A DNA stretch of 64,000 nt from a virus, in IMG/VR virus record IMGVR_UViG_3300036780_000171, positions 19,462 to 83,461 of that record; one strand, 5' to 3'. Under the pieces are notes generated by a model. That model saw nothing but the letters and a program-made list of their open reading frames with translations. It did not search any database and was not told where the DNA came from. This document shows positions 2 through 42,415 of this stretch, in pieces. Position 1 is the stretch's first letter. Each line of letters starts with the position of its first letter. Position numbers and translations under genes: made by a program.

Positions 2-172
2 TTTACCGATAAAGAAATTCTTAAAGCACCAGAGTATTGTATAAGCAAGATACTTGCAAATTTAACTCCTTCTACCGTAGCTTTGCCATCACAGCAATCA
101 CCCACAGACACTACAAACTGGGACAATAGACTTTTTACTGCACCGGATGGCAGCTTATTGTATTACGGGTAG
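2..172 (+). CDS. Partial ORF (3' end only), hypothetical, converging on the portal gene
   Basis: Open frame from window edge FTDKEILKAPEY...LLYYG to TAG at 170-172, read manually. Confidence 0.45.
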   Translation, partial: FTDKEILKAPEYCISKILANLTPSTVALPSQQSPTDTTNWDNRLFTAPDGSLLYYG

Positions 173-2692
173 CACAGTACACATACAGTTCGGGTGAAGC
201 CCTGCAGCTTGTATATCTTCGTAGTCAATTAATAATGTGCCTCCATCAACACCAGTTATTGACTGGCCTTTGCTAACGAAAGCGTCGCTATTTGGAACTA
301 TACTACCATTTAAAGCCTCACAAAATTGGCAAGGGTCTGGCCCTGCTGCGTAGTATTCCTTAGCAATTACAAAACCTGACTGAATATAAGCATCAACAGC
401 TGCCGAGTTGGCTTCATGCATGGTTTCGGTGCGGGCAATGCGAACACTACGGTAGCCCATTGCTTGGCCGAATACGTCATCAATTTCCTTTGACAAGTCT
501 TTTAGTGATAGCCCTTGGTTATAGCCACTTTTAATAACAGAAATAAGTTTGGCTTGCGTTTCTTCACTAAAATCTTTGGCAACCTTTTCCACGCGCTGGG
601 TAATGCGGTCAATGCTTGATTGGCTTAACTCGAACTTAATTGAACTATCAACAATATTCGTGGCTGATTGGCCAGACTGTTTCATAAGTTCAATTAGCAA
701 TGGCATCATATTCGTTGACATTTGTGCAACAAAGCCATCACCGCCAAAATCTAAGGTATCGGGGTCGGGCTGGTCTTGCTGGTCATTAGCAGCCTTGCGC
801 CGTGGCTTGGTGGCTACGAGCAGGCCATGTACTTTCAGACGTTGGTCACCAACCGCATTTTTCATTAAGTCAATGACTTGCGGTTGATAGGCCTGTGCCA
901 TTTTGACAATGCCAAGCCTATAGTTTTCTTTTGCGGCCACGCTTAGTGGGAGCGGCTTGTAAGCTTTTTTTTTAGATTTTAGTATCAGCTTCTTTTTAGC
1001 TGATTTCTTTTCTTCGGCATGACGATATCTACCTTTTTCATCGACCCATATATTCGGGCTATCTTCACGGCCATCACAAGGAACCGGCTCTTTGGCTTCT
1101 TCACTATTAACGTAGCCACTAGCGTCACAACGGTAACATTCGAAGCCGGTTTCATAATGCTCGCCCTTTGAATCGCAGCATTCACAAGCTATGCTGCCTT
1201 TTGGAATTTCAGCGCCATAGGCAGTCTGTGCTTTTTTAGCAGGCTTCACCTTGACATGCTTTTTAATAATACTAGTAATCGCCAATTGTGTTGCGTCGGC
1301 TGTTGCGCCACCGGCATCGCCCACACTGGTTTCGCCGCCACTTTGTGATGCTTCATTGCCACCGTCACTATTATCATCGGGTGAACCACCGCCGCCTTGG
1401 TTAGTCTGGTCATCGCTTCCGCTATTGCCAAAACCGGTAGTATCAGTGGTTTCCATATTGGTTTTTACTTCAAGTGGTACCAAGTTAAGCGGAACCATCA
1501 AAGTATCACCGCCATCGAATGACTGCAAGCCTTCCAAAGCACGTACTTCGTTTGGTGTCATAAATGGCATGGTCGGGCCGACAGCTTGCTTATAGTAGGC
1601 AATTTTCTCGTCGTTATCTTGTGGAATTGGCGACTTGTAGGTAACGGCCAGATTATCTTTGTATTTCTGGTTGTAGAAGGTTTGGATAAAGTCGACCAGC
1701 CGGTTCATTTTTGGGTCAATGACCCGCTTGGCAAAAATATATTCTGCTGTTTTGGCACTGGCATAGTTAACGTTTTCGGTAATACCAAGGATAGGCTTCG
1801 AAACGCGGAACATAAACATAATGTCATCACGAGTCATGGTTTTTAGCTCGCTCAAGTTAATATCAGAGAACGTGCTGCCAATCTTGGTATAGTTCGCATC
1901 CACATTACGAAGAAAGGCTGTCTTGCCCGCATTTTGGACATCACCATACTCACGACGCCACTGGCGCTTAATTTTCTCGAATTCTGGTTCAGGAATAGTG
2001 CCTTTGAAATTTACTATACCGGCTGGTGTGGCATTATTAGCCAAGAAGTTACGGCTATAACGCGAGGTATATTCCTCGGTTTGGATATAGACAATACCGG
2101 CTTGCACCGTACCCATACCACGATAGGGATTAATCGGGTTGGGCATCTTAAAGTGAATGACTTCGTCAAGTTCGAGTGGCACTTGCACGCGGCCATTCCA
2201 TTTATGGTAGATATAGCCGGAAACTTCGCCCGTTTCCTGGTTATAGACAATCTGCACCAAGTCAGGCCGCATAATCCATAATTCTTTTGGCTTGGCAGTA
2301 ATAGTACCTTTTGGCACGTACCAAAAGGCTTCACCGGCCAGCTCGATATGTGTTTGTGTCATTTCAATGAACTCATACGAGCTTTGGGTGGGATTCGGAT
2401 GTTTTAATAATTCCAAAAACGGATGCTGCTTGGTATATGGTGCTAATGAGTCATCGGCTTGCTTGGTCGCCAACTGAAACTCAATACGGGCTACATCTTC
2501 GGCAATAGCACTTACGCAGGCATATGTAATGCCCGTGTACTTTTCGAGTTGCTCAAGCTCACCAACCAAGTTGTTTGGATTAAACCATTGACTAAAAAAC
2601 GACAATGGCCCGACATCGCTAATAATGTTTGCCAAACCATTTAAAAGTTTAGTTCTGATATTTTTTACACCGTTAGATAAAAAGTTTGGCAT
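155..2692 (-). CDS. Portal protein (HK97 family) fused to C-terminal phage Mu gpF/SPP1 gp7-like head morphogenesis domain
   Basis: Portal motifs (YACVSAIAEDVA, LAGEAFW, EVIHFK, MTPNEVRALEGL); C-terminal RIARTET...CQFC...HPNCMC is gpF-like; ATG at 2692. Confidence 0.92.
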   Translation of the reverse strand: MPNFLSNGVKNIRTKLLNGLANIISDVGPLSFFSQWFNPNNLVGELEQLEKYTGITYACVSAIAEDVARIEFQLATKQADDSLAPYTKQHPFLELLKHPNPTQSSYEFIEMTQTHIELAGEAFWYVPKGTITAKPKELWIMRPDLVQIVYNQETGEVSGYIYHKWNGRVQVPLELDEVIHFKMPNPINPYRGMGTVQAGIVYIQTEEYTSRYSRNFLANNATPAGIVNFKGTIPEPEFEKIKRQWRREYGDVQNAGKTAFLRNVDANYTKIGSTFSDINLSELKTMTRDDIMFMFRVSKPILGITENVNYASAKTAEYIFAKRVIDPKMNRLVDFIQTFYNQKYKDNLAVTYKSPIPQDNDEKIAYYKQAVGPTMPFMTPNEVRALEGLQSFDGGDTLMVPLNLVPLEVKTNMETTDTTGFGNSGSDDQTNQGGGGSPDDNSDGGNEASQSGGETSVGDAGGATADATQLAITSIIKKHVKVKPAKKAQTAYGAEIPKGSIACECCDSKGEHYETGFECYRCDASGYVNSEEAKEPVPCDGREDSPNIWVDEKGRYRHAEEKKSAKKKLILKSKKKAYKPLPLSVAAKENYRLGIVKMAQAYQPQVIDLMKNAVGDQRLKVHGLLVATKPRRKAANDQQDQPDPDTLDFGGDGFVAQMSTNMMPLLIELMKQSGQSATNIVDSSIKFELSQSSIDRITQRVEKVAKDFSEETQAKLISVIKSGYNQGLSLKDLSKEIDDVFGQAMGYRSVRIARTETMHEANSAAVDAYIQSGFVIAKEYYAAGPDPCQFCEALNGSIVPNSDAFVSKGQSITGVDGGTLLIDYEDIQAAGLHPNCMCTVLPVIQ

Positions 2693-2753
2693 CAATGCTT
2701 TCCTGGTTCTAAAGTTTATAATACCAGTTTAAGCTATTTATAACCAAAATACT

Positions 2754-3263
2754 CTAGTTATTGAGTAGTGGTGCAAAGTATTTTTTTTCAGCAATCCTAC
2801 GAGCATTAATTGCAGCTTGTTTTTCAATGTAGTAACCAAGTGTTATTTGTTTACCGTTTAGTCCTATTCTAACACGCCATCTTCGTTGGCTTTGAACCCA
2901 GTACACACCTTTTGTACCAGATTTATTATTGTTTTGGATTCTTCTATTAATTTGTTGAACTGTTCGACTTACCCATCGGCAGTTAAAAAGCCAACTATGT
3001 GTTTTACATTCACTACACTTTCCACAAGTATAATTATCATTATTATTTTTTCGGTCAAGGGTATAGTTACTAGGTCGTTCACCCATATCTTCTGTAAAGT
3101 TATCTAAGCCGTTATTTTCTCGCCATCTTTCACAAACTTTAATACCCCGACCACCATAATCTTTATATCTCTTATGCTTTGTATTATAACAACGCTGAAG
3201 CATGTCTTGATATATCTGTCCTAAGGGGTTTTTCGGTATATGAGTACGCCTATGATAATTCAT
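2754..3263 (-). CDS. HNH homing endonuclease with AP2 domain
   Basis: YGGRGIKVCERW...TLDRKNN...NCRW and C-terminal SGTKGV...W...LGY AP2-like domain. Confidence 0.88.
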   Translation of the reverse strand: MNYHRRTHIPKNPLGQIYQDMLQRCYNTKHKRYKDYGGRGIKVCERWRENNGLDNFTEDMGERPSNYTLDRKNNNDNYTCGKCSECKTHSWLFNCRWVSRTVQQINRRIQNNNKSGTKGVYWVQSQRRWRVRIGLNGKQITLGYYIEKQAAINARRIAEKKYFAPLLNN

Positions 3264-3282
3264 AATCTATATTATAGCATAC

Positions 3283-3438
3283 TTACCATATTTTTTCAAT
3301 TTTAGCGCATAAATAGCCTACTATTAGTATAGCAGCGGTAAATAAGGCCATACCAATATTAGAAAATATTGCTATGAGAAAACAAATAATAAATACGAAG
3401 ATGCCATACCATCTGGAAATTGCAACGCGTTTATTCAT
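3283..3438 (-). CDS. Small membrane protein (51 aa)
   Basis: Manual translation MNKRVAISRWYGIFVFIICFLIAIFSNIGMALFTAAILIVGYLCAKIEKIW*, two hydrophobic segments. Confidence 0.55.
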   Translation of the reverse strand: MNKRVAISRWYGIFVFIICFLIAIFSNIGMALFTAAILIVGYLCAKIEKIW

Positions 3439-3444
3439 GGTACC

Positions 3445-3585
3445 TCAATTTAAAAGTAAGGCATGGCTATATCGAGCCTGGTTAATAGCTTGATTTATTG
3501 AATCATTTATATACAAGCAACACATGACTACAGTTAAAATAACACATATAGCTATGACCGGTAAGCTGAAAAGAACATTTTTCAT
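3445..3585 (-). CDS. Small membrane protein (46 aa)
   Basis: Manual translation MKNVLFSLPVIAICVILTVVMCCLYINDS...LLLN*. Confidence 0.5.
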   Translation of the reverse strand: MKNVLFSLPVIAICVILTVVMCCLYINDSINQAINQARYSHALLLN

Positions 3586-3639
3586 AATTAAGCTCTTATC
3601 ATTAGTATAAATTCGTAACAGATATAAAACAAGAAAATA

Positions 3640-3668
3640 TTGATAATTTTACACTCGTGCTATATAAT
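3640..3668 (+). promoter_or_regulatory. Sigma70-type promoter of tRNA array 1 leader
   Basis: TTGATA(3640-45)-17 nt-TATAAT(3663-68), 6 nt before ATG 3675. Confidence 0.8.
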
Positions 3669-3674
3669 AAAAAT

Positions 3675-3737
3675 ATGGCTAAACTAAACGTATTATCAAG
3701 TTCGTTTTATCTCTTGGAAACTCCAGAGGTCTATTAG
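3675..3737 (+). CDS. Attenuator leader peptide 1 (MAKLNVLSSSFYLLETPEVY)
   Basis: Leaderless ORF with codons CTA,TTA,TCA,AGT,TCG,TTT,TAT,CTC,TTG matching the downstream tRNAs; contains antiterminator TCCAGAGGT (3722-30). Confidence 0.8.
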   Translation: MAKLNVLSSSFYLLETPEVY

Positions 3738-3762
3738 CCATATGCTAACTTGGTACGAGAAT

Positions 3763-3794
3763 AAAACCTCTGGAATTTAACCAGAGGTTTTTTT
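3763..3794 (+). terminator. Intrinsic terminator (attenuator) upstream of tRNA array 1
   Basis: AAAACCTCTGG-aatttaa-CCAGAGGTTTTTTT. Confidence 0.88.
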
Positions 3795-3803
3795 AATACC
3801 TAA

Positions 3804-3878
3804 TGCCTTGTAGCTCAACAGTAGAGCATCGGCCCGAAGAACCGAGTGTAGTGGGGGCAGCACCCACCGAGGCAACCA
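3804..3878 (+). tRNA. tRNA-Phe(GAA), atypical (C33, C31-A39 mismatch, T-loop GGCAGCA)
   Basis: Cloverleaf TGCCTTG/CGAGGCA, loop CCGAAGA, encoded CCA. Confidence 0.8.
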
Positions 3879-3881
3879 TAA

Positions 3882-3969
3882 TCGGGAGCGGCGAAGATGG
3901 CGAGTCGCAGCAGTCTGTAAAACTGTTGTCCTTGTGGCTAAATAGGTTCGAATCCTATCTCCCGAACCA
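3882..3969 (+). tRNA. tRNA-Tyr(GTA)
   Basis: TCGGGAG/CTCCCGA, loop CTGTAAA, long variable arm, TTCGAAT, CCA. Confidence 0.92.
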
Positions 3970-3970
3970 T

Positions 3971-4048
3971 GCTCATGTGGCGCAACTGGTAGACGCAAAC
4001 GGCTCAAACCCGTTCCAACTACAGGTTCGAATCCTGTCATGAGTACCA
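3971..4048 (+). tRNA. tRNA-Leu(CAA), short variable region
   Basis: GCTCATG/CATGAGT, AACGG-CTCAAAC-CCGTT, TTCGAAT, CCA. Confidence 0.92.
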
Positions 4049-4049
4049 A

Positions 4050-4126
4050 GCCCCGGTGACGGAACTGGCATACGTACTTGGCTTAGAACCAAGGTTTTAG
4101 GGGTTCGACTCCCCTCTGGGGTACCA
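4050..4126 (+). tRNA. tRNA-Leu(TAG), short variable region
   Basis: GCCCCGG/CTGGGGT, CTTGG-CTTAGAA-CCAAG, TTCGACT, CCA. Confidence 0.92.
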
Positions 4127-4132
4127 ATTTAT

Positions 4133-4216
4133 GCGTCGTTGGCGGAACAGGTATACGCAGTCGGCTTAAACCCGATGCCGCAAGGTTTACTGGTTCGAAT
4201 CCAGTACGGCGTACCA
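4133..4216 (+). tRNA. tRNA-Leu(TAA)
   Basis: GCGTCGT/ACGGCGT, GTCGG-CTTAAAC-CCGAT, variable arm, CCA. Confidence 0.92.
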
Positions 4217-4222
4217 AAATAT

Positions 4223-4310
4223 GGAGGGTCGCAAGGCTGGCGTGCTTATCGGTTTTGAAAACCGTGATGGGGTAAAACCTGTGGGGAATCGTTCTCTCCA
4301 CCCTCCGCCA
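4223..4310 (+). tRNA. tRNA-Ser(TGA), atypical T-loop
   Basis: GGAGGGT/ACCCTCC, G73, loop TTTGAAA, long variable arm, CCA. Confidence 0.85.
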
Positions 4311-4336
4311 AGTACCATCTGAAAACTGGAAATTAG

Positions 4337-4422
4337 GGTGAGTGAACTGGTTGGGAATCAGCTTTGTTTGCTAAACAAATGGCACCGCAAGGTGTGAGTG
4401 TCGGGAACTCCGCTCACCGCCA
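4337..4422 (+). tRNA. tRNA-Ser(GCT), atypical T-arm
   Basis: GGTGAGT/GCTCACC, G73, TTTGT-TTGCTAA-ACAAA, long variable arm, CCA. Confidence 0.82.
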
Positions 4423-4437
4423 TGTTATAATCAGAAT

Positions 4438-4575
4438 ATGTTGGAATTTATAATTTTAATTCTAGTCTTGCTTTGGGTTGGCGGCTTATTGGCAAATGTT
4501 GGCGGCTTAATAAATCTGTTGCTCATAGTTATTCTGGTCTTAGTGATTGTTAAGCTTGCACAGCGTGCCAGATAG
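4438..4575 (+). CDS. lmo0937/DUF5670-like small membrane protein
   Basis: MLEFIILILVLLWVGGLLANVGGLINLLLIVILVLVIVKLAQRAR*; TGTTATAAT just upstream. Confidence 0.75.
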   Translation: MLEFIILILVLLWVGGLLANVGGLINLLLIVILVLVIVKLAQRAR

Positions 4576-4589
4576 CTTATAATCAAAAG

Positions 4590-4710
4590 TGCAACTACTC
4601 TTAGTTGCAGGGTGAGTCATGGGGTGGCCTTTTGAAAAAACCACTTGCGTTGAACTGAAACGAGCTTTTATCGACCGGGGCTTGGTAGCAGGAAGCAAGT
4701 GGTTTTTTCA
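4590..4710 (+). ncRNA. Candidate structured small RNA
   Basis: TATAAT 4578-83; hairpin TGCAACTA/TAGTTGCA; perfect 16-bp inverted repeat 4633-48/4695-4710. Confidence 0.35.
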
Positions 4711-4718
4711 TGGCAAAG

Positions 4719-4749
4719 AAAAAAGGCCAGATTTTCGCTGGCCTTTTTT
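4719..4749. terminator. Bidirectional intrinsic terminator between the convergent tRNA arrays
   Basis: AAAAAAGGCCAG-attttcg-CTGGCCTTTTTT. Confidence 0.88.
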
Positions 4750-4768
4750 ACTCACATATAAGATTCTC

Positions 4769-4844
4769 TGGTTGCGGGAACACGAGAGTTGAACTCGCTT
4801 AAGAAGCCTTATGAGAGCTTCGAGATACCGACCTGCCGCCCGCA
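4769..4844 (-). tRNA. tRNA with CAT anticodon (Met or Ile2), atypical
   Basis: TGCGGG/CCCGCA, AAGCT-CTCATAA-GGCTT, TTCAACT, CCA; own TATAAT 6 nt upstream. Confidence 0.72.
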
Positions 4845-4861
4845 TTATTAATTATATCATA

Positions 4862-4936
4862 TGGTTCAGGTGCTTGGATTCGAACCAAGATTGCGTGAGT
4901 CAAAGTCACGAGTCCTACCTATTAGACGACTCCTGA
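4862..4936 (-). tRNA. tRNA-Gln(TTG)
   Basis: TCAGGAG/CACCTGA, CGTGA-CTTTGAC-TCACG, TTCGAAT, CCA. Confidence 0.9.
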
Positions 4937-4937
4937 T

Positions 4938-5014
4938 TGGTTGGCGAGGTTGGATTCGAACCAACGAATTACCAAGTTCAGAGCTTGGAGCCTTACCAGC
5001 TTGGCCACTCGCCA
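4938..5014 (-). tRNA. tRNA-Gln(CTG)
   Basis: TGGCGAG/CTCGCCA, CCAAG-CTCTGAA-CTTGG, TTCGAAT, CCA. Confidence 0.92.
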
Positions 5015-5086
5015 TGGTACACCTAGTCGGATTTGAACCGAACATCAAGGCTTAGAACACCTTTTCACCTGTCCTGGGCTGGGTGC
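5015..5086 (-). tRNA. tRNA-Arg(TCT), degenerate or atypical D-arm
   Basis: AAGGT-GTTCTAA-GCCTT, TTCAAAT T-loop, acceptor with one mismatch, CCA. Confidence 0.65.
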
Positions 5087-5087
5087 T

Positions 5088-5162
5088 TGGAGGGCTAGGA
5101 GAATTTCGAAATCTCGACTGCCGCATTAAGAGTGCGGTTCTCTGCCTCTGAGTTACTAGCCC
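5088..5162 (-). tRNA. tRNA-Lys(CTT)
   Basis: GGGCTAG/CTAGCCC, CCGCA-CTCTTAA-TGCGG, TTCGAAA, CCA. Confidence 0.88.
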
Positions 5163-5568
5163 GTTTTCTGCGCCCAGTACGCCAGCGATATTTATTCTGA
5201 CTATCTGCCGAAGCTCTCTTACAAGCATTACATCGACAGCCATATTTATATCCTGTATATGTACCATGGATTAAATGTCGTTTTCTTCTTCCAGCTAACC
5301 TACCTTTACGAGAAGCATCTTGCATATTGTCAGCGCGTGTACCAAGAAATAAATGGCTAGGGTTTACGCATATCTTATTGTCACATTTATGGCATACATC
5401 AATTCCTTTGGGTATATCCCCGTTAGAAATAATCCATGAAACACGATGTGTGTCAATAACTTTTTTGCCGACTTTAAAACAGCCATAGCCATTTTTAGTA
5501 CGTCTTGCGGCCATCCATAGCCAGCAATTGCTAGATTTATCGACTTTAAGCCAAAAACGCTTCTCCAT
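5095..5568 (-). CDS. HNH homing endonuclease; 3' end overlaps tRNA-Lys
   Basis: [47 protein letters not shown]. Confidence 0.9.
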
Positions 5569-5608
5569 TGGTCGTCATTATAGCACGAACCTTTTTAATG
5601 TACAATAT

Positions 5609-5684
5609 TGGTCAGGGTTGCAGGCTTTGCTCCCGCCGCCTCTGAGTCCCAAACCCAGCGCTCTACTAAATGAGCTAAACCCTG
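5609..5684 (-). tRNA. tRNA-Pro(TGG), atypical T-loop AGCAAAG
   Basis: CAGGGTT/AACCCTG, CTGGG-TTTGGGA-CTCAG, CCA. Confidence 0.85.
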
Positions 5685-5687
5685 ATA

Positions 5688-5758
5688 TGGCACCGGTGTA
5701 AGGGTTCGAACCTCATCTCGCAGTTTTGGAGGCTGCTACGCTCCTAAGCGTCACCGAT
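5688..5758 (-). tRNA. tRNA-Trp(CCA), shortened D-arm
   Basis: ATCGGTG/CACCGGT, G73, GCAGC-CTCCAAA-ACTGC, TTCGAAC, CCA. Confidence 0.8.
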
Positions 5759-5761
5759 ACG

Positions 5762-5789
5762 AAAAAACCGCCCTTGTGTAGGCGGTTTC
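5762..5789 (-). terminator. Intrinsic terminator (attenuator) upstream of tRNA array 2
   Basis: GAAACCGCC-tacacaag-GGCGGTTTTTT on the - strand. Confidence 0.85.
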
Positions 5790-5812
5790 CTTTGCTATGT
5801 TAAGAATTCTGA

Positions 5813-5887
5813 CTATGCTAAGAAACCACCCGTGCTAATCGGATTATCGTGCTTCCACACGCGGACTGGTTTACATATGTTAGCCAT
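5813..5887 (-). CDS. Attenuator leader peptide 2 (MANICKPVRVWKHDNPISTGGFLA)
   Basis: Leaderless ORF with the same 21-nt start as leader 1; GGGTGGTTTC (5822-31) pairs with the terminator 5' arm. Confidence 0.75.
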   Translation of the reverse strand: MANICKPVRVWKHDNPISTGGFLA

Positions 5888-5893
5888 ATTTTT

Positions 5894-5922
5894 ATTATAT
5901 GGTAGTGAATAAAAAAAATCAA
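5894..5922 (-). promoter_or_regulatory. Sigma70-type promoter of tRNA array 2 leader
   Basis: TTGATT-17 nt-TATAAT, 6 nt before ATG 5887. Confidence 0.8.
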
Positions 5923-5925
5923 GTC

Positions 5926-7326
5926 CTACATAAATACCACATCATTTGCCGTTACTGCTACAGTGTTACTAAATGTCATTGAAGCGGCATCGGCTATGTC
6001 AGGACTAGCAATACCACGTTTGCCAAGCTCTTCCTTTGGCTCAATTTTCACTCGGCTGGCGCTATCCGGCTTATAGTTAATTAAGCTAATCTGATAAAAT
6101 TCTTCGGTTTTAACAATTTTGCCGCCGCCCTTTACCCACTGGCCAAGTAACCAGTATGCTTCCGCGCGCAAGTTAGCATAGCTGTCTTTTTCGTATGCTG
6201 TAGTTCCGCCTTTGAATGTATTGACTACTATATTTCGTTCGGCCAAACGGTTGCCCACGCCATGACCCACGCCGCTATCGTCAACCGTAACGTCTGTGCT
6301 GGTTATCTCGTATTCTTTCATATAGCCTTCAATCCGGCCGACTTGTGCCATTAAATCAGGGTCACGGTTCTTTTCTAGCAAGCGCATATAATTGTCGTAA
6401 CGCAGCACAAACGTGGTGTAGTTACTTCCACCGGCCGCGATGTCAACACCTAAGCGCGGCCGACCCACGGGGCGCGGTATTTGTAGCTCGGCATCTTCGT
6501 ATGCTCTCTCAAGGTCACTATCCGTAACCAGCTTCCGCCAGCCCTGCTCATTAACTTCATCTTCTTCGGGGAATTGGCAAGCATAGAGAATATCGAAAAA
6601 GGCTTCATTTCGCATTTCCTCGATAAAGGCTTCGCTATAGCGATTTTCTCTAAGTGCCTGCACATAGTCGATAAAAATACGGAAATAGCGGCCATTGTTC
6701 CATGTCCGGTGGAAGTGATTGCGATAAAATGGGTTGCCAATTTTGAGCAAGAAGCTATCTTGCTGACCACCAAGCATACGCATAACCATGCTCTGTAGGT
6801 CATCTGGAATCAGCGCTGACTCGTCTTCTATAATATTTGGGCTACCAAAGCCAGTTAATGACTCTTTCACGCGTTGGCGGTTGCGAGAGTCGGCTGTAAA
6901 GGTACGTATGCCGCCGCCGCCTTTCCAAGTCACCTGTCGCTTATTTCTGGTACGACGCAATTTATCTAGCGGTTCGTTCGGGTCAAGCTCAAGCTGGCTA
7001 TAGAATTGTTCATGGTCGAATGAGTGCTGTATCACCTTTTCCATAATAATCTGCGACTTTGGTTCTGACCCCGTCACAATAGCAAACTGCTCATGAAAGG
7101 CTTGGCTACGCACGATTAAAGCCATCGCCACCGTTGAGCTTTTACCATACTGTGTGCTGGCAATAACCTGCACCCGTTGGTGGTCTTTTATAAATATGAC
7201 ATTAAAAATATCTGCCTGGCCGTCTGTTAATTCAAACGGTAAGCCTTTATCATCTCTAAAATAGCGTCTAACTATTTGCTTCGCTATTTCCCGATTCTGC
7301 TGTCTCGCTTGGCTCGTCGTCGGCAT
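5926..7326 (-). CDS. terL: Terminase large subunit
   Basis: Walker A-like ASTQYGKS, Walker B IIEDES, GNP motif, RNase H-like LGVDIAAGG and SPDIADA. Confidence 0.92.
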   Translation of the reverse strand: MPTTSQARQQNREIAKQIVRRYFRDDKGLPFELTDGQADIFNVIFIKDHQRVQVIASTQYGKSSTVAMALIVRSQAFHEQFAIVTGSEPKSQIIMEKVIQHSFDHEQFYSQLELDPNEPLDKLRRTRNKRQVTWKGGGGIRTFTADSRNRQRVKESLTGFGSPNIIEDESALIPDDLQSMVMRMLGGQQDSFLLKIGNPFYRNHFHRTWNNGRYFRIFIDYVQALRENRYSEAFIEEMRNEAFFDILYACQFPEEDEVNEQGWRKLVTDSDLERAYEDAELQIPRPVGRPRLGVDIAAGGSNYTTFVLRYDNYMRLLEKNRDPDLMAQVGRIEGYMKEYEITSTDVTVDDSGVGHGVGNRLAERNIVVNTFKGGTTAYEKDSYANLRAEAYWLLGQWVKGGGKIVKTEEFYQISLINYKPDSASRVKIEPKEELGKRGIASPDIADAASMTFSNTVAVTANDVVFM

Positions 7327-7711
7327 TTTCAAGGTTCTTTCTCATAAGATTGGCTAGTTCACGCAACTCGTCATCTTCTTTGGTTTTAATCTCGCCCTCG
7401 ACTTCAACCTTGGCTTTATTTGTAAAGTTTGGGTCTTTTTTCTCCAAGTACCATTTGGCCGTTGGTAAATCTTTCCCTGATGCAAGGGCTTCGGCCACTA
7501 TATCACGGCTGGTTTGGGCTAGAAAGTTTTTAGCTGCTTCCATTCTTTGGGAAAACTCAGGATATTTTTTCAGCCAATCATAATAGGTCGTTATATCTAT
7601 AACAGCGTAACGACAAGCTGCTTCGATTGAGCTATCACGCTGAAGCATAGCAACGAGTTTCCCAACGATTTCCTCGCTATAAATTGTTGGTCTACCTATT
7701 TTTTTTGCCAT
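7268..7711 (-). CDS. terS: Terminase small subunit
   Basis: GRPTIYS N-terminus, HTH (ACRYAVIDITTYYDWLKKYPEF), AKWYLEK; overlaps terL. Confidence 0.8.
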   Translation of the reverse strand: MAKKIGRPTIYSEEIVGKLVAMLQRDSSIEAACRYAVIDITTYYDWLKKYPEFSQRMEAAKNFLAQTSRDIVAEALASGKDLPTAKWYLEKKDPNFTNKAKVEVEGEIKTKEDDELRELANLMRKNLENADDEPSETAESGNSEANS

Positions 7712-34949: not shown

Positions 34950-35009
34950 TTTTATTATCACGGTTGTGTATAATAAGAGCATGAAAAGTAAAACTATGGA
35001 AAAAGTCTT

Positions 35010-35321
35010 ATGGTATTTATAGGCTTTATCTATCTACTTCTCGGTTTTATATTCGGTGCATTTGTCGGCATAATGGCGATGACTGTTTATGGCGATACCA
35101 TTATCAATGACGAGGTCAAAGAAATTCGCGGACAGCGAATAGAAACCGCTAAACTACACTTTGAAACCAAGGTTTTTAAGAAGCTAATAAAAGAAAACCG
35201 CATTATAATGCTGCCCAAAGGCTTGACAAAGCGCCAGTTCTACTTGCTTAGATTAATTGCTCATTCAATATCAAAAATTGATAACGAAATTGCCCAGGTG
35301 ATAAAAGAGGTCGAGAAATGA
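35010..35321 (+). CDS. Membrane-anchored hypothetical protein
   Basis: N-terminal TM segment. Confidence 0.6.
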   Translation: MVFIGFIYLLLGFIFGAFVGIMAMTVYGDTIINDEVKEIRGQRIETAKLHFETKVFKKLIKENRIIMLPKGLTKRQFYLLRLIAHSISKIDNEIAQVIKEVEK

Positions 35322-35496
35322 GAATCTTTATACTTCGCATGATTTGTGATGCAATGGAATGGCTGATGGTTAGATACATGCGATTGGCGGTATGTATCTA
35401 CTCACCAGTAATACAATATAACGAAAGGAGTAAACTTTAAACTGGTGCTGTAGAGGCAGATTAATTTTACCATAAAGTAATAAGGAAGAAAATACA

Positions 35497-36099
35497 ATGA
35501 GTGTATCTCTTACAAAAGGCGAAAGCGTAACTCTGAGCAAAGCAGCTTCCGATGCTGGTTCTACCGCACCACTTACCAAAGTGATTGCGGGTGCTGGCTG
35601 GGATGGCACAAGCAGTGACCCGATTGACCTCGACCTGATGGCCGTGCTAATCGGTGACGACGGCAAGGCTTTGCCCGACGCTAATAATAATGGTAGTAAT
35701 GCCGATGAAGCCCTGTTGTTTTTTAACAACAAGACTCTGCCAGGTTTGGCTCACAGTGGTGACAACCTGACCGGCGAGGGCGAAGGTGATGACGAGCAAA
35801 TCGTTATTACACTTGCCGATGTTGCTGCCACCGTCAAAGAAATCGCTATTGTGGTCGCAAGCTACAGCGGTGAAAGCTTTGACAAGGTTGCAAACGCAAG
35901 TGTCCGTCTCGTGAACGAAGCCGACCAGAAAGAACTCGCCAAGTACGAGCTGACTTCTGGCGCGGAGTTTGCAGGCAAGCACGGTGTTGAGCTTGGTCGC
36001 CTGACTCGCAATGGTTCTGAATGGGAATTCAAAGCCACTGGTGCAGTCGTTGAAGGTGCTGATTTCGACGCAGTTGTCAAGACTCTTGGCATTAGCTAG
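35497..36099 (+). CDS. terD: TerD family protein
   Basis: SLTKGE..L, GAGWD, DLDL, HSGDNLTGEGEGDDEQI, WEFKATG. Confidence 0.93.
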   Translation: MSVSLTKGESVTLSKAASDAGSTAPLTKVIAGAGWDGTSSDPIDLDLMAVLIGDDGKALPDANNNGSNADEALLFFNNKTLPGLAHSGDNLTGEGEGDDEQIVITLADVAATVKEIAIVVASYSGESFDKVANASVRLVNEADQKELAKYELTSGAEFAGKHGVELGRLTRNGSEWEFKATGAVVEGADFDAVVKTLGIS

Positions 36100-36157
36100 A
36101 GCCAATCGGGGAGTTTCGACTCCCCACCAATTTCATAAACATAATGAGGTAAAACAT

Positions 36158-36742
36158 ATGTCAGATACGGTAAAGCTAGTAAAAGGGCAAAACGTAGAAT
36201 TGAGCAAGGTTGCTCCGGGCATGACCAAGGCCATTGTTGGCTTGGGTTGGGATGAATTGCAAGGTTCAGAAACGGCCGACCTTGACGCGATGGCCTTTCT
36301 TTTGAAGACCGATGGCAAGGTTCGTAGTGACAAAGATTTTGTCTACTACAATAACCTCGATGGTGCTGCTCCTGCGGTTAAACACAGTGGCGACGACTTG
36401 ACGGGCGGAAGTAGCGAGCATGGCGACGATGAGCAAATTCAAGTCGACCTATCAGCTATTCCAAGTGATGTTGAAAGCATCAAGTTTTTGGTTGACATTT
36501 ACCAAGCTGCCGAAAAAGGTCAGAATTTTGGTCAAGTAAAGAATGCCTATGTTCGGTTAGTCGATGCAGCAACAAATCAGGAAGTAGTACGCTACGACCT
36601 GACGGAAGACTATAGCGGCAACACCGATGTCATGGTTGCCGAACTCTATCGCCACGATGGCACATGGAAATTTAAGGCCATAGGCGAAGGCTCGACTAAA
36701 GGCTCTAGCCAAATTGCGAAAGACCTTGGTGTTAACACATAG
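36158..36742 (+). CDS. terD: TerD family protein
   Basis: LVKGQNVEL, GLGWD, DLDA, HSGDDLTG..DDEQI, FGQVKNAYVR, WKFKAIG. Confidence 0.93.
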   Translation: MSDTVKLVKGQNVELSKVAPGMTKAIVGLGWDELQGSETADLDAMAFLLKTDGKVRSDKDFVYYNNLDGAAPAVKHSGDDLTGGSSEHGDDEQIQVDLSAIPSDVESIKFLVDIYQAAEKGQNFGQVKNAYVRLVDAATNQEVVRYDLTEDYSGNTDVMVAELYRHDGTWKFKAIGEGSTKGSSQIAKDLGVNT

Positions 36743-37169
36743 TGATGTCCTTCCAGTCACATTCACTAAAAAAGTAGATTTTATTTCTAGTGAATGTTGG
36801 CTTTGGAAGGCCGGACTAACAAGTGCCGGCTATGGTAACTTCAGATTCGATAAAATATACTACTTAGCGCATAGATTTTCATACTTAGTATTAGTGGGCA
36901 AGTTAAAACCAGCCGATATTCTCGACCATAAATGCCATAACGAAGATAAGTATTGTAAAGGTGGTAAAAGCTGTCGGCATCGAAGATGTGTAAATCCTAG
37001 TCACTTAGAGATTACTACACAAAGAACCAATGTCTTAAACGGCAAAGGTATAGCAGCAGTCAATAGTAAGAAAATCTATTGTAAAAGAGGTCATTTATTT
37101 GACAATGAGAATACTCGTTATCAAAACGGTAGAAGACATTGTCGCAAATGTAATAAATTAAGGAGTTAA
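36714..37169 (+). CDS. HNH homing endonuclease inside the ter module
   Basis: CWLW..GYG..AHRFSY..LDHKC..CVNPSHL..N; CKRGH..CRKC. Confidence 0.88.
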   Translation: MRKTLVLTHSDVLPVTFTKKVDFISSECWLWKAGLTSAGYGNFRFDKIYYLAHRFSYLVLVGKLKPADILDHKCHNEDKYCKGGKSCRHRRCVNPSHLEITTQRTNVLNGKGIAAVNSKKIYCKRGHLFDNENTRYQNGRRHCRKCNKLRS

Positions 37170-37170
37170 A

Positions 37171-37305
37171 ATGTTAGAACTAATAATAGTGCTTGCAATT
37201 TACAGTATCTTAGTGTTGTTGTTTGTTCCGCTCAAAAAAATTGGTGAATGGCAGAGCAAAGTTCGCGGCTGGGAAAAGAAAGTTAAAGACAAGCTCGACG
37301 AGTAA
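37171..37305 (+). CDS. Small membrane protein (44 aa)
   Basis: MLELIIVLAIYSILVLLFVPLKK...LDE*, with AGGAG RBS. Confidence 0.6.
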   Translation: MLELIIVLAIYSILVLLFVPLKKIGEWQSKVRGWEKKVKDKLDE

Positions 37306-37310
37306 ATAGT

Positions 37311-38324
37311 ATGTTCAAACTATTTCGCATACCCCTACTTGTAAATGGGGTAGCTCTATTAATTTCGTACTTCATATGGGGTTTGCCAGCAGCAATAACC
37401 GTTGCCATTCTAACGGTTTTAGAAATTAGTTTTTCGTTCGATAACGCAGTTGTAAACGCCAAGATACTTGGCCGCATGAATGAGTATTGGCAACGCATTT
37501 TCCTGACCATAGGCGTGCTTATCGCCGTGTTTGGCATGAGATTGCTATTTCCGCTCATTGTCGTGGCTCTGGCAGCCCATATGTCGCCACTAGCCGCTTT
37601 ACACTTGGCGCTACAGCATCCTGACGAATATGCCAAGCATTTAACCTATGCACACCCTGCAATCGCAGCATTTGGCGGTACATTCCTAGCTATGCTATTT
37701 TTGGACTGGCTGCAGGAAGAACGGGAAATACAATGGCTAACACCGATTGAAAATACCTTGTTTAAACTTGGCCGCGTTGAGAATATATCGGTCATTATCA
37801 TGGCCGTGGTTTTGGCTATCATATCGTTTACGCTGGGTCACTCGGTCATGGTGTTAACGTCAGGCATACTTGGCTTGGCAACATACTTGGCTGTCAACAG
37901 CCTAAGCAGTTTCTTTGATAAAGACACTGTTGCCCAAGTCGCCAAGGCAGGACTTGCCACATTCCTATACCTTGAAGTTTTGGATGCCAGTTTTAGCTTT
38001 GATGGCGTGGTTGGCGCATTTGCCGTGACCAGTAATATCTTTTTAATTGCTATTGGTCTTGGCATTGGTGCCGCCTATATTCGAGGTTTGACCGTCTATC
38101 TGGTACGCAAAGGCACGCTAAGCGAATATGTGTACTTAGAACATGGCGCTCATTGGGCGATTGGTATTTTGGCTGCGTTGTTATTACTGACAATTAAATT
38201 CGATATTTCAGATATAATCACCGGCTTAATTGGTGTGGCGTTTATTGGTACCGCGTTTATAAATTCGATAATAGTAAAGAAAAGAGGCGATAATGCGCAA
38301 GTTATATCGGCTACTGAAAGATAG
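37311..38324 (+). CDS. TerC-like integral membrane protein (DUF475)
   Basis: LEISFSFDNAVVNA, FLYLEVLDASFSFDGV, YLEHGAHWAI. Confidence 0.92.
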   Translation: MFKLFRIPLLVNGVALLISYFIWGLPAAITVAILTVLEISFSFDNAVVNAKILGRMNEYWQRIFLTIGVLIAVFGMRLLFPLIVVALAAHMSPLAALHLALQHPDEYAKHLTYAHPAIAAFGGTFLAMLFLDWLQEEREIQWLTPIENTLFKLGRVENISVIIMAVVLAIISFTLGHSVMVLTSGILGLATYLAVNSLSSFFDKDTVAQVAKAGLATFLYLEVLDASFSFDGVVGAFAVTSNIFLIAIGLGIGAAYIRGLTVYLVRKGTLSEYVYLEHGAHWAIGILAALLLLTIKFDISDIITGLIGVAFIGTAFINSIIVKKRGDNAQVISATER

Positions 38325-38586
38325 CCCTGAACTCAAAAAGGATGCAATCTTACAAGAAGATTGCGACAATGGCGACCAAGGTTTTAGTATTCTTACTAAA
38401 GAGTATCTAAAGCATAGCGACCAAGGTGGTCTAAGTTACTCGCGTAAAACCGTCATGAATTCACCCGAATGGTTCGAGGAAGTGTTCGACTTGAGCAAGA
38501 TATTCTATGTTACTAAAAGTGAGCTGGATAAAGTCAAGGAATTACTTAAAAGTCCAAACTTTAACAAGTTTGTCAAGAAAAAATGA
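38293..38586 (+). CDS. Hypothetical protein
   Basis: Packed ORF. Confidence 0.65.
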   Translation: MRKLYRLLKDSPELKKDAILQEDCDNGDQGFSILTKEYLKHSDQGGLSYSRKTVMNSPEWFEEVFDLSKIFYVTKSELDKVKELLKSPNFNKFVKKK

Positions 38587-38981
38587 ACCTTTTGCACCAT
38601 ATGAAGCGCATACACCATTTGCCAAGAAAGTATATTACTATTTTAAGGCATGGCACCGAATCAATACAGGAATTACTGATAGTGTATTTATGCACCGTGC
38701 TTCTATGTGCCACAATTTTTTCGATAACTGAACATCAAGGCGAATTTAACTCAATTTGGTGGGCTTTTGTCACGGCATTAACTATTGGCTATGGCGACTT
38801 TTACCCGCATACGGTGGTAGGAAAAATTGATGCCGTATTGTTAATGCATTTGGTCACGTTATTTATTCTGCCAATCGTCATTGCACGAATGGCTAATAAA
38901 ATCGTTAAAGATAAGGATAAATTCACGCTTGAGGAACGTGAAGAAATTAAGACAATATTACGTAAATTAGATAAGAGGTAA
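38583..38981 (+). CDS. Two-TM potassium channel (KcsA-like pore)
   Basis: SIWWAFVTALTIGYGDFYP selectivity filter. Confidence 0.92.
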   Translation: MNLLHHMKRIHHLPRKYITILRHGTESIQELLIVYLCTVLLCATIFSITEHQGEFNSIWWAFVTALTIGYGDFYPHTVVGKIDAVLLMHLVTLFILPIVIARMANKIVKDKDKFTLEEREEIKTILRKLDKR

Positions 38982-38984
38982 GTT

Positions 38985-39758
38985 ATGTTTGGTCATCATA
39001 GTAATTCAAATTCAAAAACCGTTGCCAGAAGTGTACCGCTAGTCAAAGATAATAGCGGTGCTTCGGCGGTTAGTTTCGATAAAATAGAACAAAGCGGTGG
39101 TATTGACCTTCGTAAAAAGAGTGAAGCTGTCACTATTTCGCTACAAAAGCGTAACATTGGTGGTCTACGTGCACAAGTGGTAGTTATTCTTGACCATTCC
39201 GGTTCAATGTATGGCGACTATGCAAACCACAAGGTGCAGGATTTAGTCGAACGTTTTCTCGGTTTTGGCCTCGCAGTTGACATTGATGGAACTGTGCCGG
39301 TTATCCCATTCGACAGCGTGGTGCATAATGCTACCGAAGTTACACTCGAAAACTACCATAATGTAGTACAAGACAAAATTTGGAAGCCAAGCGGAATGGG
39401 CAGCACAAACCTGACCGACGCACTTAAAAAAGTGCGTGATATAACTGCCAGTACCGATGCACCCATTTTCTGTGCTATTGTTACCGATGGTGAGCCAAAT
39501 GATGATAACTCGGCCACGGAGCTTGTTTGCGACCTTGCCCGTTATCCCGTGTTTATTAAGTTTTTGGCAGTACAAAAAGTTTACTACCTCGAGAAACTCG
39601 ATGACCTGCCAAGCAGCGAGCGTTTAGTCGATAATGTCGATACCAAAGAATATGTAGGTAATATGTCGAGTGTAACTGATGAGCAATTTGCCGATGACCT
39701 AACCGATGAGTGGCAAAGCTGGGTCGATGCCGCTAAGCAGGTTGGTATCCTGACATAA
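38985..39758 (+). CDS. vWA domain protein (TerF-associated vWA type)
   Basis: ILDHSGSM MIDAS, G.T, IVTDGEP, LEKLDDL..R.VDN. Confidence 0.85.
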   Translation: MFGHHSNSNSKTVARSVPLVKDNSGASAVSFDKIEQSGGIDLRKKSEAVTISLQKRNIGGLRAQVVVILDHSGSMYGDYANHKVQDLVERFLGFGLAVDIDGTVPVIPFDSVVHNATEVTLENYHNVVQDKIWKPSGMGSTNLTDALKKVRDITASTDAPIFCAIVTDGEPNDDNSATELVCDLARYPVFIKFLAVQKVYYLEKLDDLPSSERLVDNVDTKEYVGNMSSVTDEQFADDLTDEWQSWVDAAKQVGILT

Positions 39759-39798
39759 ATAGTTTGTATTCTTAATTGCGCTTGTGTATAATAAGACT

Positions 39799-40137
39799 AT
39801 GGATAAGAAAGTAAAACAAGAATACAAACCACAAGAGCCAGACCCGAGTAGCAATACACAACGTAAGAGGTCAGGGAAGCCAGCTATTACGCTGGCTTCC
39901 AAGACTAAAACGACTACAGAAACTCGCAGATATATTGTTCGGCTCGGCCGTTTGACCGCTACGTTTGAAGTTACCCATGATGCCAAAATGACATTTTTTG
40001 ACGGTCCAAAATCCAAGCAAATCAAGGAGTACCATTTTGAATTAAGCGACCCTCTAGTAGTTAAGAAAGTTTCGGCACTAATTACAGAATGTGCCAAGGT
40101 CGCATTAAAAGCTGTCAAGGAAATGAAGCATGACTAG
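39799..40137 (+). CDS. Hypothetical protein (leaderless start)
   Basis: ATG 6 nt after TATAAT 39787-92. Confidence 0.6.
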   Translation: MDKKVKQEYKPQEPDPSSNTQRKRSGKPAITLASKTKTTTETRRYIVRLGRLTATFEVTHDAKMTFFDGPKSKQIKEYHFELSDPLVVKKVSALITECAKVALKAVKEMKHD

Positions 40138-40573
40138 ATATGGGCCGGACTGCTTTTGTGGTTCACGAACTATTTACCAAGATAGCAAAGAATACTATCA
40201 TGGCACCAGCTATGGCATGCGCTATATTTGTGAGCGCTGGCCTGAATGCCTTGGTTCGGTCGGTGCTCATCCCGATGGCCAGCCACTAGGCACTGTGCCA
40301 GACCCCGAAACAAAGCGACTGCGTGGCGTTTGTCATGGCATGGTTGACGCAATTTGGCGCGACGCAAATCTGACCGCCAAAGAACAACGACAAAAGCGTG
40401 GTTCGGTATATCGTTGGCTACAAAATATTACCGGCCTATCGCAAGGAGAATGTCATATTGGAAAATTTAATGCCGAGCAATGCCGCTTTCTAATTAAGTG
40501 TATTAAAGCCGTGCCGTATGAACAGAGACATGAACTACTGCCAAATCTTTATACGGGCAGAAAAATAGCATGA
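40130..40573 (+). CDS. DUF3268-like zinc-finger protein
   Basis: CFCG..YIC..C..VGAH..PLGT..H..D.IW..Y.WL..CHIG.F..EQC. Confidence 0.8.
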   Translation: MTRYGPDCFCGSRTIYQDSKEYYHGTSYGMRYICERWPECLGSVGAHPDGQPLGTVPDPETKRLRGVCHGMVDAIWRDANLTAKEQRQKRGSVYRWLQNITGLSQGECHIGKFNAEQCRFLIKCIKAVPYEQRHELLPNLYTGRKIA

Positions 40574-40763
40574 CAAGAAATTCGGTATATTTTGCTTTGC
40601 TGATTTTTATAATTAATATACCTTTAGCATTTATGCTTTTATTCGGCGGTCTTGCAATGGCCGCCATAGTGGTAATAACTACTGGAACACTCATAATATG
40701 GGCAATCGCACTTGGCATAATCTCGTTGTAATAGTTCTAAGCTCGTGCAATAATTACTCCAGC

Positions 40764-41717: not shown

Positions 41718-42415
41718 GAACAATTATTAATGGTCGATACTATTTAGAGCTACCTGAATTTAGAGCTAAGTTCTGGCACAATAGCCCCGATTGGGAAAAA
41801 GAACGCATCGAAGCCATGAGCAACGTGGTCAAGCGCGGGCAAACGGTTATTGACGTCGGCGCGGAAGTGGGCGACATTACGGCGTTGCTGGCAACATGGG
41901 TAGGTGACACGGGAAAAGTTATTGCCATGGAGCCAGTTGAACGTACATGGCCGTTAATACGCCGTATCTTCAAACTTAATAATTTACCCGCGCCGGTTAG
42001 CTTTGTCGGTTTTGCAGCCAATGAAACCAAAAACTATTCTGGTATTCCACGGGCAGGCTGGCCTGAATGTGCCTATGGTCAGATAATGGAAGAGCCAGGG
42101 TTCCAGTTCCTTGATGAACGCTGGGATTTACCGGCCATAAAAATTGACGACTTGTATGTTCAGCCGCAGATGATTACCATTGATACCGAAGGCTCGGAAT
42201 TTGAAGTCATAAAAGGCGCGACCAGAACAATTAAATTATGCAAGCCAGATATTTTTATTTCTATCCATCGTCAATTCATGATTGACCGCTTTCAACAAAG
42301 TGCCGACGAGTTGGTGACGTATATCGAAGATATTGGCTACCGTTCAGACCTATTAGTTATCGACCATGAAGAACATTGGGCATTTACACCGAAAAGGGGA
42401 AAAAGTGAATCTTGA
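41714..42415 (+). CDS. FkbM family methyltransferase
   Basis: VIDVGAEVG, VIAMEP, IDTEGSEFEVIKGA. Confidence 0.88.
   Translation: MRTIINGRYYLELPEFRAKFWHNSPDWEKERIEAMSNVVKRGQTVIDVGAEVGDITALLATWVGDTGKVIAMEPVERTWPLIRRIFKLNNLPAPVSFVGFAANETKNYSGIPRAGWPECAYGQIMEEPGFQFLDERWDLPAIKIDDLYVQPQMITIDTEGSEFEVIKGATRTIKLCKPDIFISIHRQFMIDRFQQSADELVTYIEDIGYRSDLLVIDHEEHWAFTPKRGKSES

Follow-up and report, generated by a model that had tools for sequence, protein, structure and literature searches.

How does a phage that carries its own transfer RNA (tRNA) genes regulate when they are transcribed? Phage tRNA genes are now viewed as codon-usage supplements and as counter-measures to tRNA-cleaving defenses (PARIS, the retron effector PtuAB, PrrC, Schlafen), and the control of their expression is essentially a blank in current knowledge. 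The question is raised in compact form by a 64,000-nucleotide (nt) stretch of phage DNA, which we call the window, corresponding to bases 19,462-83,461 of an 83,461-bp IMG/VR virus record with direct terminal repeats (IMGVR_UViG_3300036780_000171). An earlier note on the window, made by a model from the letters alone, had proposed that a leader-peptide attenuator controls one tRNA array. Two paralogous units of promoter, short open reading frame (ORF) and terminator are present, each placed in front of one of two convergent arrays, and it is in our judgment probable that both are ribosome-mediated leader-peptide transcription attenuators, each gating its own array. A more tentative extension is that a single tiny ORF would let the phage gauge how fast exactly those codons are decoded that its own tRNAs read, and that the array would open only when those codons slow, as under host codon-usage mismatch, host shut-off or a tRNA-cleaving defense.

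Two leader units precede two convergent tRNA arrays

Unit 1 lies on the plus strand. Its sigma-70-type promoter (3640-3668) consists of TTGATA (3640-3645), a 17-nt spacer and TATAAT (3663-3668), with 11/12 matches, and the -10 box ends 6 nt 5′ of the ATG of a leaderless ORF of 20 codons and a TAG stop (3675-3737, stop at 3735-3737) whose start falls on the predicted +1. An intrinsic terminator, made of regions 3 and 4, follows at 3763-3794, with a hairpin of -14.9 kcal/mol (3763-3791; 11-bp stem, 7-nt loop) and a run of seven T (3788-3794); it stands 9 nt before the first tRNA gene and was missed by a simple terminator scan because the T-run is partly inside the stem. Promoter, leaderless ORF and terminator are all found where the earlier note had placed them.

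The leader ORF of unit 1 also contains the strands needed for alternative pairings. Region 2, the antiterminator 5′ strand, occupies codons 16-19 (3722-3730) and ends 4 nt before the stop. Here TCCAGAGGT (3722-3730) is complementary to ACCTCTGGA (3766-3774) in the 5′ arm of the terminator, a match already pointed out from the sequence, with a duplex energy of -15.6 kcal/mol against -6.7 +/- 1.8 kcal/mol in shuffles, none of which (0/2000) was as good. Region 1, within codons 12-15 (3709-3718), pairs with region 2 on folding to give an anti-antiterminator hairpin. The minimum-energy fold further encloses a 5′ domain (3675-3741) by a closing helix of AUGGCUAA (3675-3682) with UUAGCCAU (3734-3741), which holds the start codon and the stop codon of the ORF in its opposite arms. 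Together, the region 1:region 2 hairpin, the outer helix, the antiterminator and the terminator make up the classical 1:2, 2:3 and 3:4 set, and the leader as a whole folds with z = -5.0 relative to shuffles. Two further pairings had been suggested, of which ATGGCTAA/TTAGCCAT is present in the minimum-energy fold, while GTTTTATCTC/GAGAATAAAAC arises on folding only with a ribosome positioned at the stop.

Searching the genome with the unit 1 leader revealed a 21-nt identity on the opposite strand, running from the -10 box into the ORF, and with it a second, paralogous element (unit 2, 5922-5762, minus strand). Its promoter (5894-5922, minus strand) reads TTGATT, 17 nt, TATAAT and is identical to unit 1 over those 21 nt from the -10 box on; the leaderless leader ORF has 24 codons and a TAG stop (5813-5887, minus strand); and the intrinsic terminator (5762-5791, minus strand; hairpin -15.6 kcal/mol) lies 3 nt before tRNA-Trp. 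The antiterminator 5′ strand of unit 2 (5820-5832, minus strand), identified from duplex energy and a truncated fold, covers codons 19-22 and ends 6 nt before the stop, and its duplex of -17.6 kcal/mol compares with -8.6 +/- 2.0 kcal/mol in shuffles, 4/2000 being as good. The leader fold has z = -2.8 relative to shuffles. The two leaders align only at the start and at the antiterminator and stop region, whereas their bodies and terminator stems differ. Similarity between the ORF bodies is close to random, yet neither frame has been closed; the layout is kept, with different helix sequences.

Each terminator stands so close to its first tRNA (9 nt in unit 1, 3 nt in unit 2) that a promoter would not fit between them. 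Upstream of unit 1, all genes run in the other direction. Array 1 should therefore be expressible only by read-through of the terminator.

A leaderless start signature opens both leader ORFs

Neither leader ORF has a Shine-Dalgarno sequence, and both leader ATGs, at 3675 and 5887, stand in an exact TATAAT-N6-ATG configuration. This configuration occurs at 15 sites in the genome, while the other spacings from 2 to 13 nt occur 0-4 times each, and 9/15 of the sites start ORFs that pass a 100-codon cutoff (112-360 codons; binomial P 1e-5). Examples include 4438, 5568 (minus), 12138 (minus), 20726 (minus), 24114 (minus), 32131, 39799, 46903 and 61317 (minus). A distance of exactly 6 nt from the -10 box puts the expected transcription start on the first base of the ATG, and the sharp spacing preference of the 15 sites implies that leaderless mRNAs are widespread in this phage and that the host translates them well. 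Since TATAAT-N6-ATG appears to be the regular leaderless start of the phage, used by first genes, both leader mini-ORFs are probably translated.

A 20-mer common to both units matches 10 viral and 79 metagenome stretches. In 51 of the 79 metagenome contigs an ORF of 100 codons or more begins at it, and none of the viral or metagenome matches is followed by a same-strand tRNA array. It can be taken on this evidence as a generic strong leaderless gene start, which would account for its conservation between the two units. The same TATAAT-N6-ATG signature also precedes a 13-codon ORF at 34981-35022, which is overlapped by a longer frame from 35010 and has no terminator after it.

Ribosome position is predicted to set the choice of hairpin

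The two units are outliers among the terminators of their own genome. When the upstream complement of the terminator 5′ arm was scored for the ten strict terminators, unit 1 gave z = -4.65 and unit 2 z = -2.65, the remaining eight falling between -1.2 and +2.1. In both units the antiterminator 5′ strand lies within the last 3-5 codons of the ORF, with the stop codon 4-6 nt further on.

Folding with and without a ribosome footprint had been proposed as a check, and we modeled each leader as a nascent RNA ending at the terminator loop, keeping 28 nt unpaired as the footprint. When the A site of the ribosome is at any of codons 2-12 of unit 1, the antiterminator is occupied at 0.94-0.97; this falls to 0.74 at codon 13 and to 0 at codon 14 and all later positions through the stop. 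The unit 2 antiterminator stands at ~0.95 with no ribosome at all and with one as far as codon 15, and at 0 between codon 19 and the stop. The trp logic is thereby reproduced in the model, with the unit 1 antiterminator available at codons 2-13 and blocked from codon 14, and in both units the model favors termination when the ribosome finishes the ORF and read-through when it lags. As for the 1:2 pairing, the hairpin of unit 1 and its outer helix are in the minimum-energy fold, with the antiterminator still at 0.35 when no ribosome is present; in unit 2 the region 1:2 pairing is confined to the full-length fold, 2:3 being preferred once the RNA is truncated. Physical obstruction of the terminator by a ribosome on the stop codon is unlikely, because the hairpins begin 22-25 nt after the stop.

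The sequence of events that we propose is as follows. Host RNA polymerase would initiate at the A of the ATG, 7 nt after TATAAT, and a 70S ribosome would load on the leaderless 5′-AUG and translate the 20-codon (unit 1) or 24-codon (unit 2) ORF. Were decoding fast, the ribosome at the last codons or the stop would cover the antiterminator 5′ strand, the terminator hairpin would form and transcription would end before the tRNAs. A lag or stall in the first ~13 (unit 1) or ~16 (unit 2) codons would instead let the antiterminator pair with the terminator 5′ arm, and polymerase would read on into the tRNAs. The sensitive codons of unit 1 are mostly those read by its seven tRNAs, and array 1 would in this way be made on demand. 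Anticodon nucleases or starvation as the trigger are speculation. At the level of the predicted elements, the trp-like layout put forward in the earlier note is borne out by the leaderless start signature, the antiterminator in the last codons and the strong terminator.

Leader codons and array anticodons

Identifying the tRNAs downstream of each unit allowed us to compare leader codons with array anticodons. The unit 1 leader contains a cognate codon for 7/7 tRNAs of array 1, 6/7 of them within the sensitive codons 2-13, and codons 4 and 7-14 are codons read by the downstream tRNAs. Full coverage of the seven tRNAs is reached by 0.7% of stop-free 19-codon windows of the genome (p = 0.007) and by 1.1-1.9% of open dinucleotide shuffles, and unit 1 gives full coverage for 0.23% of random 7-of-14 tRNA subsets (p = 0.0023). 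Counted by array, 9/19 unit 1 codons are cognate to array 1 and 1/19 to array 2, compared with 5/23 unit 2 codons cognate to array 2 and 3/23 to array 1. The resulting leader-by-array table ([[9,1],[3,5]]) gives a Fisher p of 0.043, carried by unit 1.

The claim that leader codons match all tRNAs of the array thus holds for unit 1 (7/7, nominal p ~0.002-0.02) and fails to extend to its sister, unit 2. Per-tRNA codon sensing is plausible in unit 1 as judged from these codon counts, and is unsupported in unit 2, whose leader specifies 17 different amino acids in 24 codons and looks like a more general gauge of translation speed. Taken alone, the window is suggestive of per-tRNA sensing, short of decisive.

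The same design in the cultured phage phi38:1

Seven named phages chosen by tRNA similarity were scanned with a strict finder for a terminator just before a tRNA, and only one was flagged, Cellulophaga phage phi38:1 (NC_021796.1), a cultured phage whose host is Cellulophaga baltica. Its tRNA region (35078-42202 of NC_021796.1, here L147) contains three paralogous units, each with a promoter-like box, a short ORF, a terminator and a tRNA sub-array; the leader ORFs, behind a common promoter box, are at L147 206-283, 1667-1756 and 2910-2999, and the three terminators are at ~35,390-35,415, ~36,880-36,915 and ~38,100-38,140 of NC_021796.1. Leader 1 is rich in Lys, Thr, Ile, Met, Asp, Arg, Gly and Val codons and precedes a sub-array of Lys, Ile, Gly, Met, Asp, Thr, Val and Arg tRNAs. 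Leader 2 is rich in Tyr, Asn, Ser and Phe codons, before Tyr, Ser, Ser, Asn and Phe tRNAs, and leader 3 in Leu, His, Gln, Glu, Pro and Arg codons, before Pro, Glu, Gln, His, Leu and Arg tRNAs. Each leader covers its own sub-array completely (8/8, 5/5 and 6/6), and the leader-by-sub-array table ([[16,2,2],[5,15,3],[7,5,11]]) has a chi-square p of 7e-6, with 0/20,000 tRNA permutations as good. Antiterminator strands are present in the ORF ends with p = 0.001, 0.004 and 0.053, unit 3 being marginal.

The parallels with the window are paralogous units with a common promoter and first codons, divergent ORF bodies, a terminator just before the sub-array, an antiterminator strand in the 3′ end of the ORF, and leader codons enriched for the unit's own sub-array, in the window nominally and through unit 1. 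The differences are that phi38:1 shares no sequence similarity with the window units, that its promoter is of the Bacteroidota type, and that its codon matching is far stronger (8/8, 5/5, 6/6 and p = 7e-6, versus 7/7, 4/7 and p = 0.043). As an independent case, phi38:1 shows that the predicted design exists outside the window phage, and it therefore gives greater confidence in the attenuator reading of the window units. If such leaders do take a census of codons, the two units of the window and the three of phi38:1 would be independent inventions or very old relatives. In the annotation of phi38:1, two of the leader ORFs are hidden within longer frames, labeled as hypothetical proteins, that extend across the promoter box, and the third is unannotated, as is a tRNA-Tyr at ~L147:1854-1936.

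With the strict finder, no terminator was found directly before a tRNA in the T5-like, Felix-O1-like, cyanophage and actinophage tRNA regions sampled, and the design is therefore not universal. The T5-type tRNA regions of Aeromonas phage AhP_Mru1 and Proteus phage Stubb resemble the window in having small ORFs and homing-endonuclease genes among the tRNAs, but the scan saw no terminator between small ORFs and tRNAs in them and no promoter-ORF-terminator unit. In Mesorhizobium phage Cp1R7A-A1 (L148), a 43-codon annotated ORF lies in the segment 3080-3366, with a strong terminator at ~3239-3272 and tRNAs ~95 nt later; the ORF has codons for all downstream tRNAs (Trp, Leu x3, His, Asp).

Possible explanations for the leader units

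Several observations weigh against attenuation by a translating ribosome. Unit 2 matches only 4/7 of its own tRNAs, which is at chance level (p = 0.36-0.5), and has no Gln and no AGA codon. The ribosome-free default differs between the units, being mixed in unit 1 (0.35 antiterminator) and favoring read-through in unit 2. At equilibrium the full-length RNAs of both units always form the terminator, and the switch therefore has to be kinetic, as in all attenuators. The start and stop codons of unit 1 sit in the two arms of one helix, so its ATG...TAG frame could partly be a by-product of that helix. Three of the seven tRNAs of array 1 are non-canonical and may be non-functional. Finally, our searches gave no island-bearing relative, and hence no covariation for the window element itself.

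One possible alternative, which we regard as unlikely, keeps a real antiterminator switch, makes the ORFs incidental to the RNA structure, and lets the switch respond to nucleotide level, to the speed of polymerase, to a small RNA or to a protein of phage or host that binds the RNA. The alternative pairings are indeed the statistically solid part of the evidence, the complement of the start region contains TAG, which makes a chance ATG...TAG frame easier, and unit 2 is without codon matching. However, both ATGs stand in the exact TATAAT-N6-ATG configuration that opens the long genes of the phage, and both frames are open through diverged bodies only to stop 4-6 nt after the antiterminator strand; the codon match of unit 1 and the three matched leaders of phi38:1 would also be left unexplained.

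It is quite unlikely, in our view, that the promoter-to-terminator segments (~120 nt each) are small-RNA genes and that the tRNAs come from constitutive leak through the terminators. The leaders do fold much better than shuffles in both units, they have a structured 5′ domain, an A/U-rich linker and a U-tailed terminator, and they give weak, sub-threshold Rfam matches to several small-RNA families; attenuator RNAs also act in trans elsewhere, rnTrpL being an example. Small RNAs would leave unexplained the antiterminator strands in both ORF ends, the leaderless signature, the codon matching and the placement of two strong terminators 3-9 nt before arrays that have no other promoter. The two functions are not exclusive, as the RNA left by termination might double as a small RNA.

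Very unlikely is the absence of any regulation, in which case the hairpins would insulate, in both directions, a mobile island of tRNA and homing-endonuclease genes, and AT-rich DNA would have yielded the ORFs and the codon matches by chance. In favor of this, the unit 1 hairpin also reads as a minus-strand terminator, the island is an insertion between terminase and portal genes, and the codon match, noticed post hoc, is confined to one unit with p of only ~0.01. Against it, there is no minus-strand gene whose transcript that hairpin would need to stop, the antiterminator z-scores are outliers among the genome's terminators, and the layout is duplicated in the window and triplicated in the unrelated cultured phage phi38:1.

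Relation to known attenuators

Multivalent leaders of amino-acid operons include those of thr (Thr and Ile codons) and ilvGMEDA (Ile, Val and Leu codons), alongside trpL and hisL. The enterobacterial leader-peptide attenuators also include pheL (PMC3082878). With these systems the window shares a promoter-proximal mini-ORF containing the putatively sensed codons, predicted competing 1:2, 2:3 and 3:4 hairpins and an intrinsic terminator, and the model is likewise the same, in that a ribosome at the stop would mask region 2 and a stalled ribosome would free it. Unlike them, the targets are tRNAs in a phage accessory island, not biosynthetic enzymes or synthetases, the leader uses single codons for up to seven tRNAs instead of runs for one amino acid, and the ORF is leaderless. 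The Rfam Phe_leader model (RF01859) aligns with unit 1 end to end, AUG on AUG and terminator on terminator, at 32.4 bits against a gathering threshold of 55 (E = 0.0098 over 3.5 kb and 0.00064 over 231 nt). Unit 1 resembles the Phe_leader layout, with a score below that of family members and no sequence homology.

Experimental precedent for sensing by a leaderless ORF comes from mycobacteria, where leaderless polycysteine sensory short ORFs make up the 'Cys ribulon' (Canestrari et al., bioRxiv 10.1101/834739). There the short ORF likewise begins at a leaderless 5′-AUG and its translation speed sets downstream expression via mRNA structure, but control is of translation, by sequestration of the ribosome-binding site, and concerns a single amino acid and metabolic genes, whereas the window has terminators before tRNAs.

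Direct sensing of tRNA by the leader RNA was also considered. UGGUAC (3750-3755) is complementary to GUACCA, with which all three Leu tRNAs end, a T-box-like arrangement that we rejected because it is only 6 nt long, is expected by chance at ~2%, has no counterpart in unit 2 and comes without a T-box model match. The T-box model matched neither 3600-3830, where E values up to 10 were accepted, nor 3000-6500, where the limit was 1, and the leader is only ~120 nt long.

The earlier note knew of no such description for tRNA genes, and our full-text literature searches likewise found no attenuator described before tRNA genes, phage or cellular. The genome of phi38:1 is published, but its leader units have no description in the literature searched, and the phi38:1 transcriptome paper (PMC5335546) is without mention of them. 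The attenuator reading would therefore amount to a known mechanism applied to a novel target class, tRNA genes. More tentatively, leader peptides that take a census of codons, combined with switchable terminators, could be a widespread, undescribed route by which phages make tRNA arrays on demand. If so, a sensor spelled in the codons of the tRNAs it controls would provide direct feedback from decoding to tRNA supply, a textbook mechanism on new targets; many "hypothetical" mini-ORFs in phage tRNA regions would be explained; and a compact, portable sensor of codon-specific translation speed would become available for engineering. The presence of the same design in a cultured phage-host pair, phi38:1 and Cellulophaga baltica, makes the idea directly testable.

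The tRNA genes and their accessory island

Both units lie in a tRNA island of ~3.2 kb (2696-5925), flanked by the portal gene (155-2695, minus strand; Pfam Phage_portal) and the large terminase (TerL) gene (5926-7332, minus strand). The island holds 5/10 strict intrinsic terminators of the whole genome and, alongside both tRNA arrays, two HNH-type endonuclease genes. In the nearest relative compared (L013, TerL 67% identical) the island is absent and the portal gene begins 51 nt after the terminase gene; the tRNA stretch is therefore an inserted accessory island.

Searches for relatives of the island by megablast and blastn against 50,697 phage records returned tRNA-level matches only. IMG/VR searches gave 0 loci with the portal, 40 with the TerL profile and 7 with HNH, with tRNAs in none of them, and exact-pattern scans with three tRNA 3′ or T-arm motifs gave no match. 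The phage is uncultured; among the sequencing runs listed, the window occurs in a single soil metagenome, probably the source of the record, and in no RNA run. Its closest TerL homologues (P0002, P0007 and P0008; 67-69%) were found only in Logan assemblies. The nearest TerL relatives in prokaryote assemblies (L140-L142, 45-48% identity) are on contigs of metagenome-assembled genomes (MAGs) of Candidatus Daviesbacteria and Levyibacteriota (Patescibacteria), a weak hint at the host group. On Patescibacteria MAG contigs encoding TerL relatives the leaderless start signature did not stand out clearly, and the host group is therefore a guess.

Array 1 comprises seven tRNA-like genes on the plus strand, four canonical and three non-canonical. 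The canonical genes, called by ARAGORN at default settings and by Rfam, are tRNA-Tyr(GTA) (3882-3969), tRNA-Leu(CAA) (3971-4048), tRNA-Leu(TAG) (4050-4126) and tRNA-Leu(TAA) (4133-4216). The first gene of the array, Phe(GAA)-like (3804-3875), has C33 and the T-loop GGCAGCA; it folds as a cloverleaf and is found by the Rfam tRNA model only (39.2 bits, gathering score 29), with no ARAGORN call at default or relaxed threshold. tRNA-Ser(TGA) (4223-4310), with a non-canonical T-loop, also folds as a cloverleaf and is called by ARAGORN only at the relaxed -ps90 setting. The Ser(GCT)-like gene (4337-4422) is called by no program and folds unaided as a class II cloverleaf with a long variable arm, the anticodon GCT and a GCCA end. 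All seven tRNAs listed in the earlier note are thus present as tRNA-like genes, with the limit that Phe(GAA), Ser(TGA) and Ser(GCT) are non-canonical. The identities in array 1 are exactly the bacterial class II tRNAs (Leu x3, Ser x2, Tyr) plus Phe, several of the genes have odd T-loops, and Leu(CAA) and Leu(TAG) are merely 77-78 nt long.

Array 2 (4773-5758, minus strand) comprises seven tRNA or tRNA-like genes and an HNH gene. In the direction of transcription, these are tRNA-Trp(CCA) (5688-5758), tRNA-Pro(TGG) (5609-5684), the HNH endonuclease gene with its own promoter (5095-5568), tRNA-Lys(CTT) (5088-5162), a weak Arg(TCT)-like gene (5019-5092), tRNA-Gln(CTG) (4938-5014), tRNA-Gln(TTG) (4862-4936) and tRNA-Met/Ile(CAT) (4773-4843), all on the minus strand. 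A TATAAT box in 4844-4856 (minus strand) ends 7 nt before the first base of tRNA-Met/Ile(CAT), which may thus have a promoter of its own, with a transcript starting at or beside the mature 5′ end. The two convergent arrays are divided by hairpins at 4590-4750 that read as terminators on both strands and include a long inverted repeat at ~4640-4705. TGTTATAAT-N6-ATG adjoins the CCA with which the final tRNA of array 1 ends, and opens a very hydrophobic ORF of 45 codons (4424-4575, plus strand).

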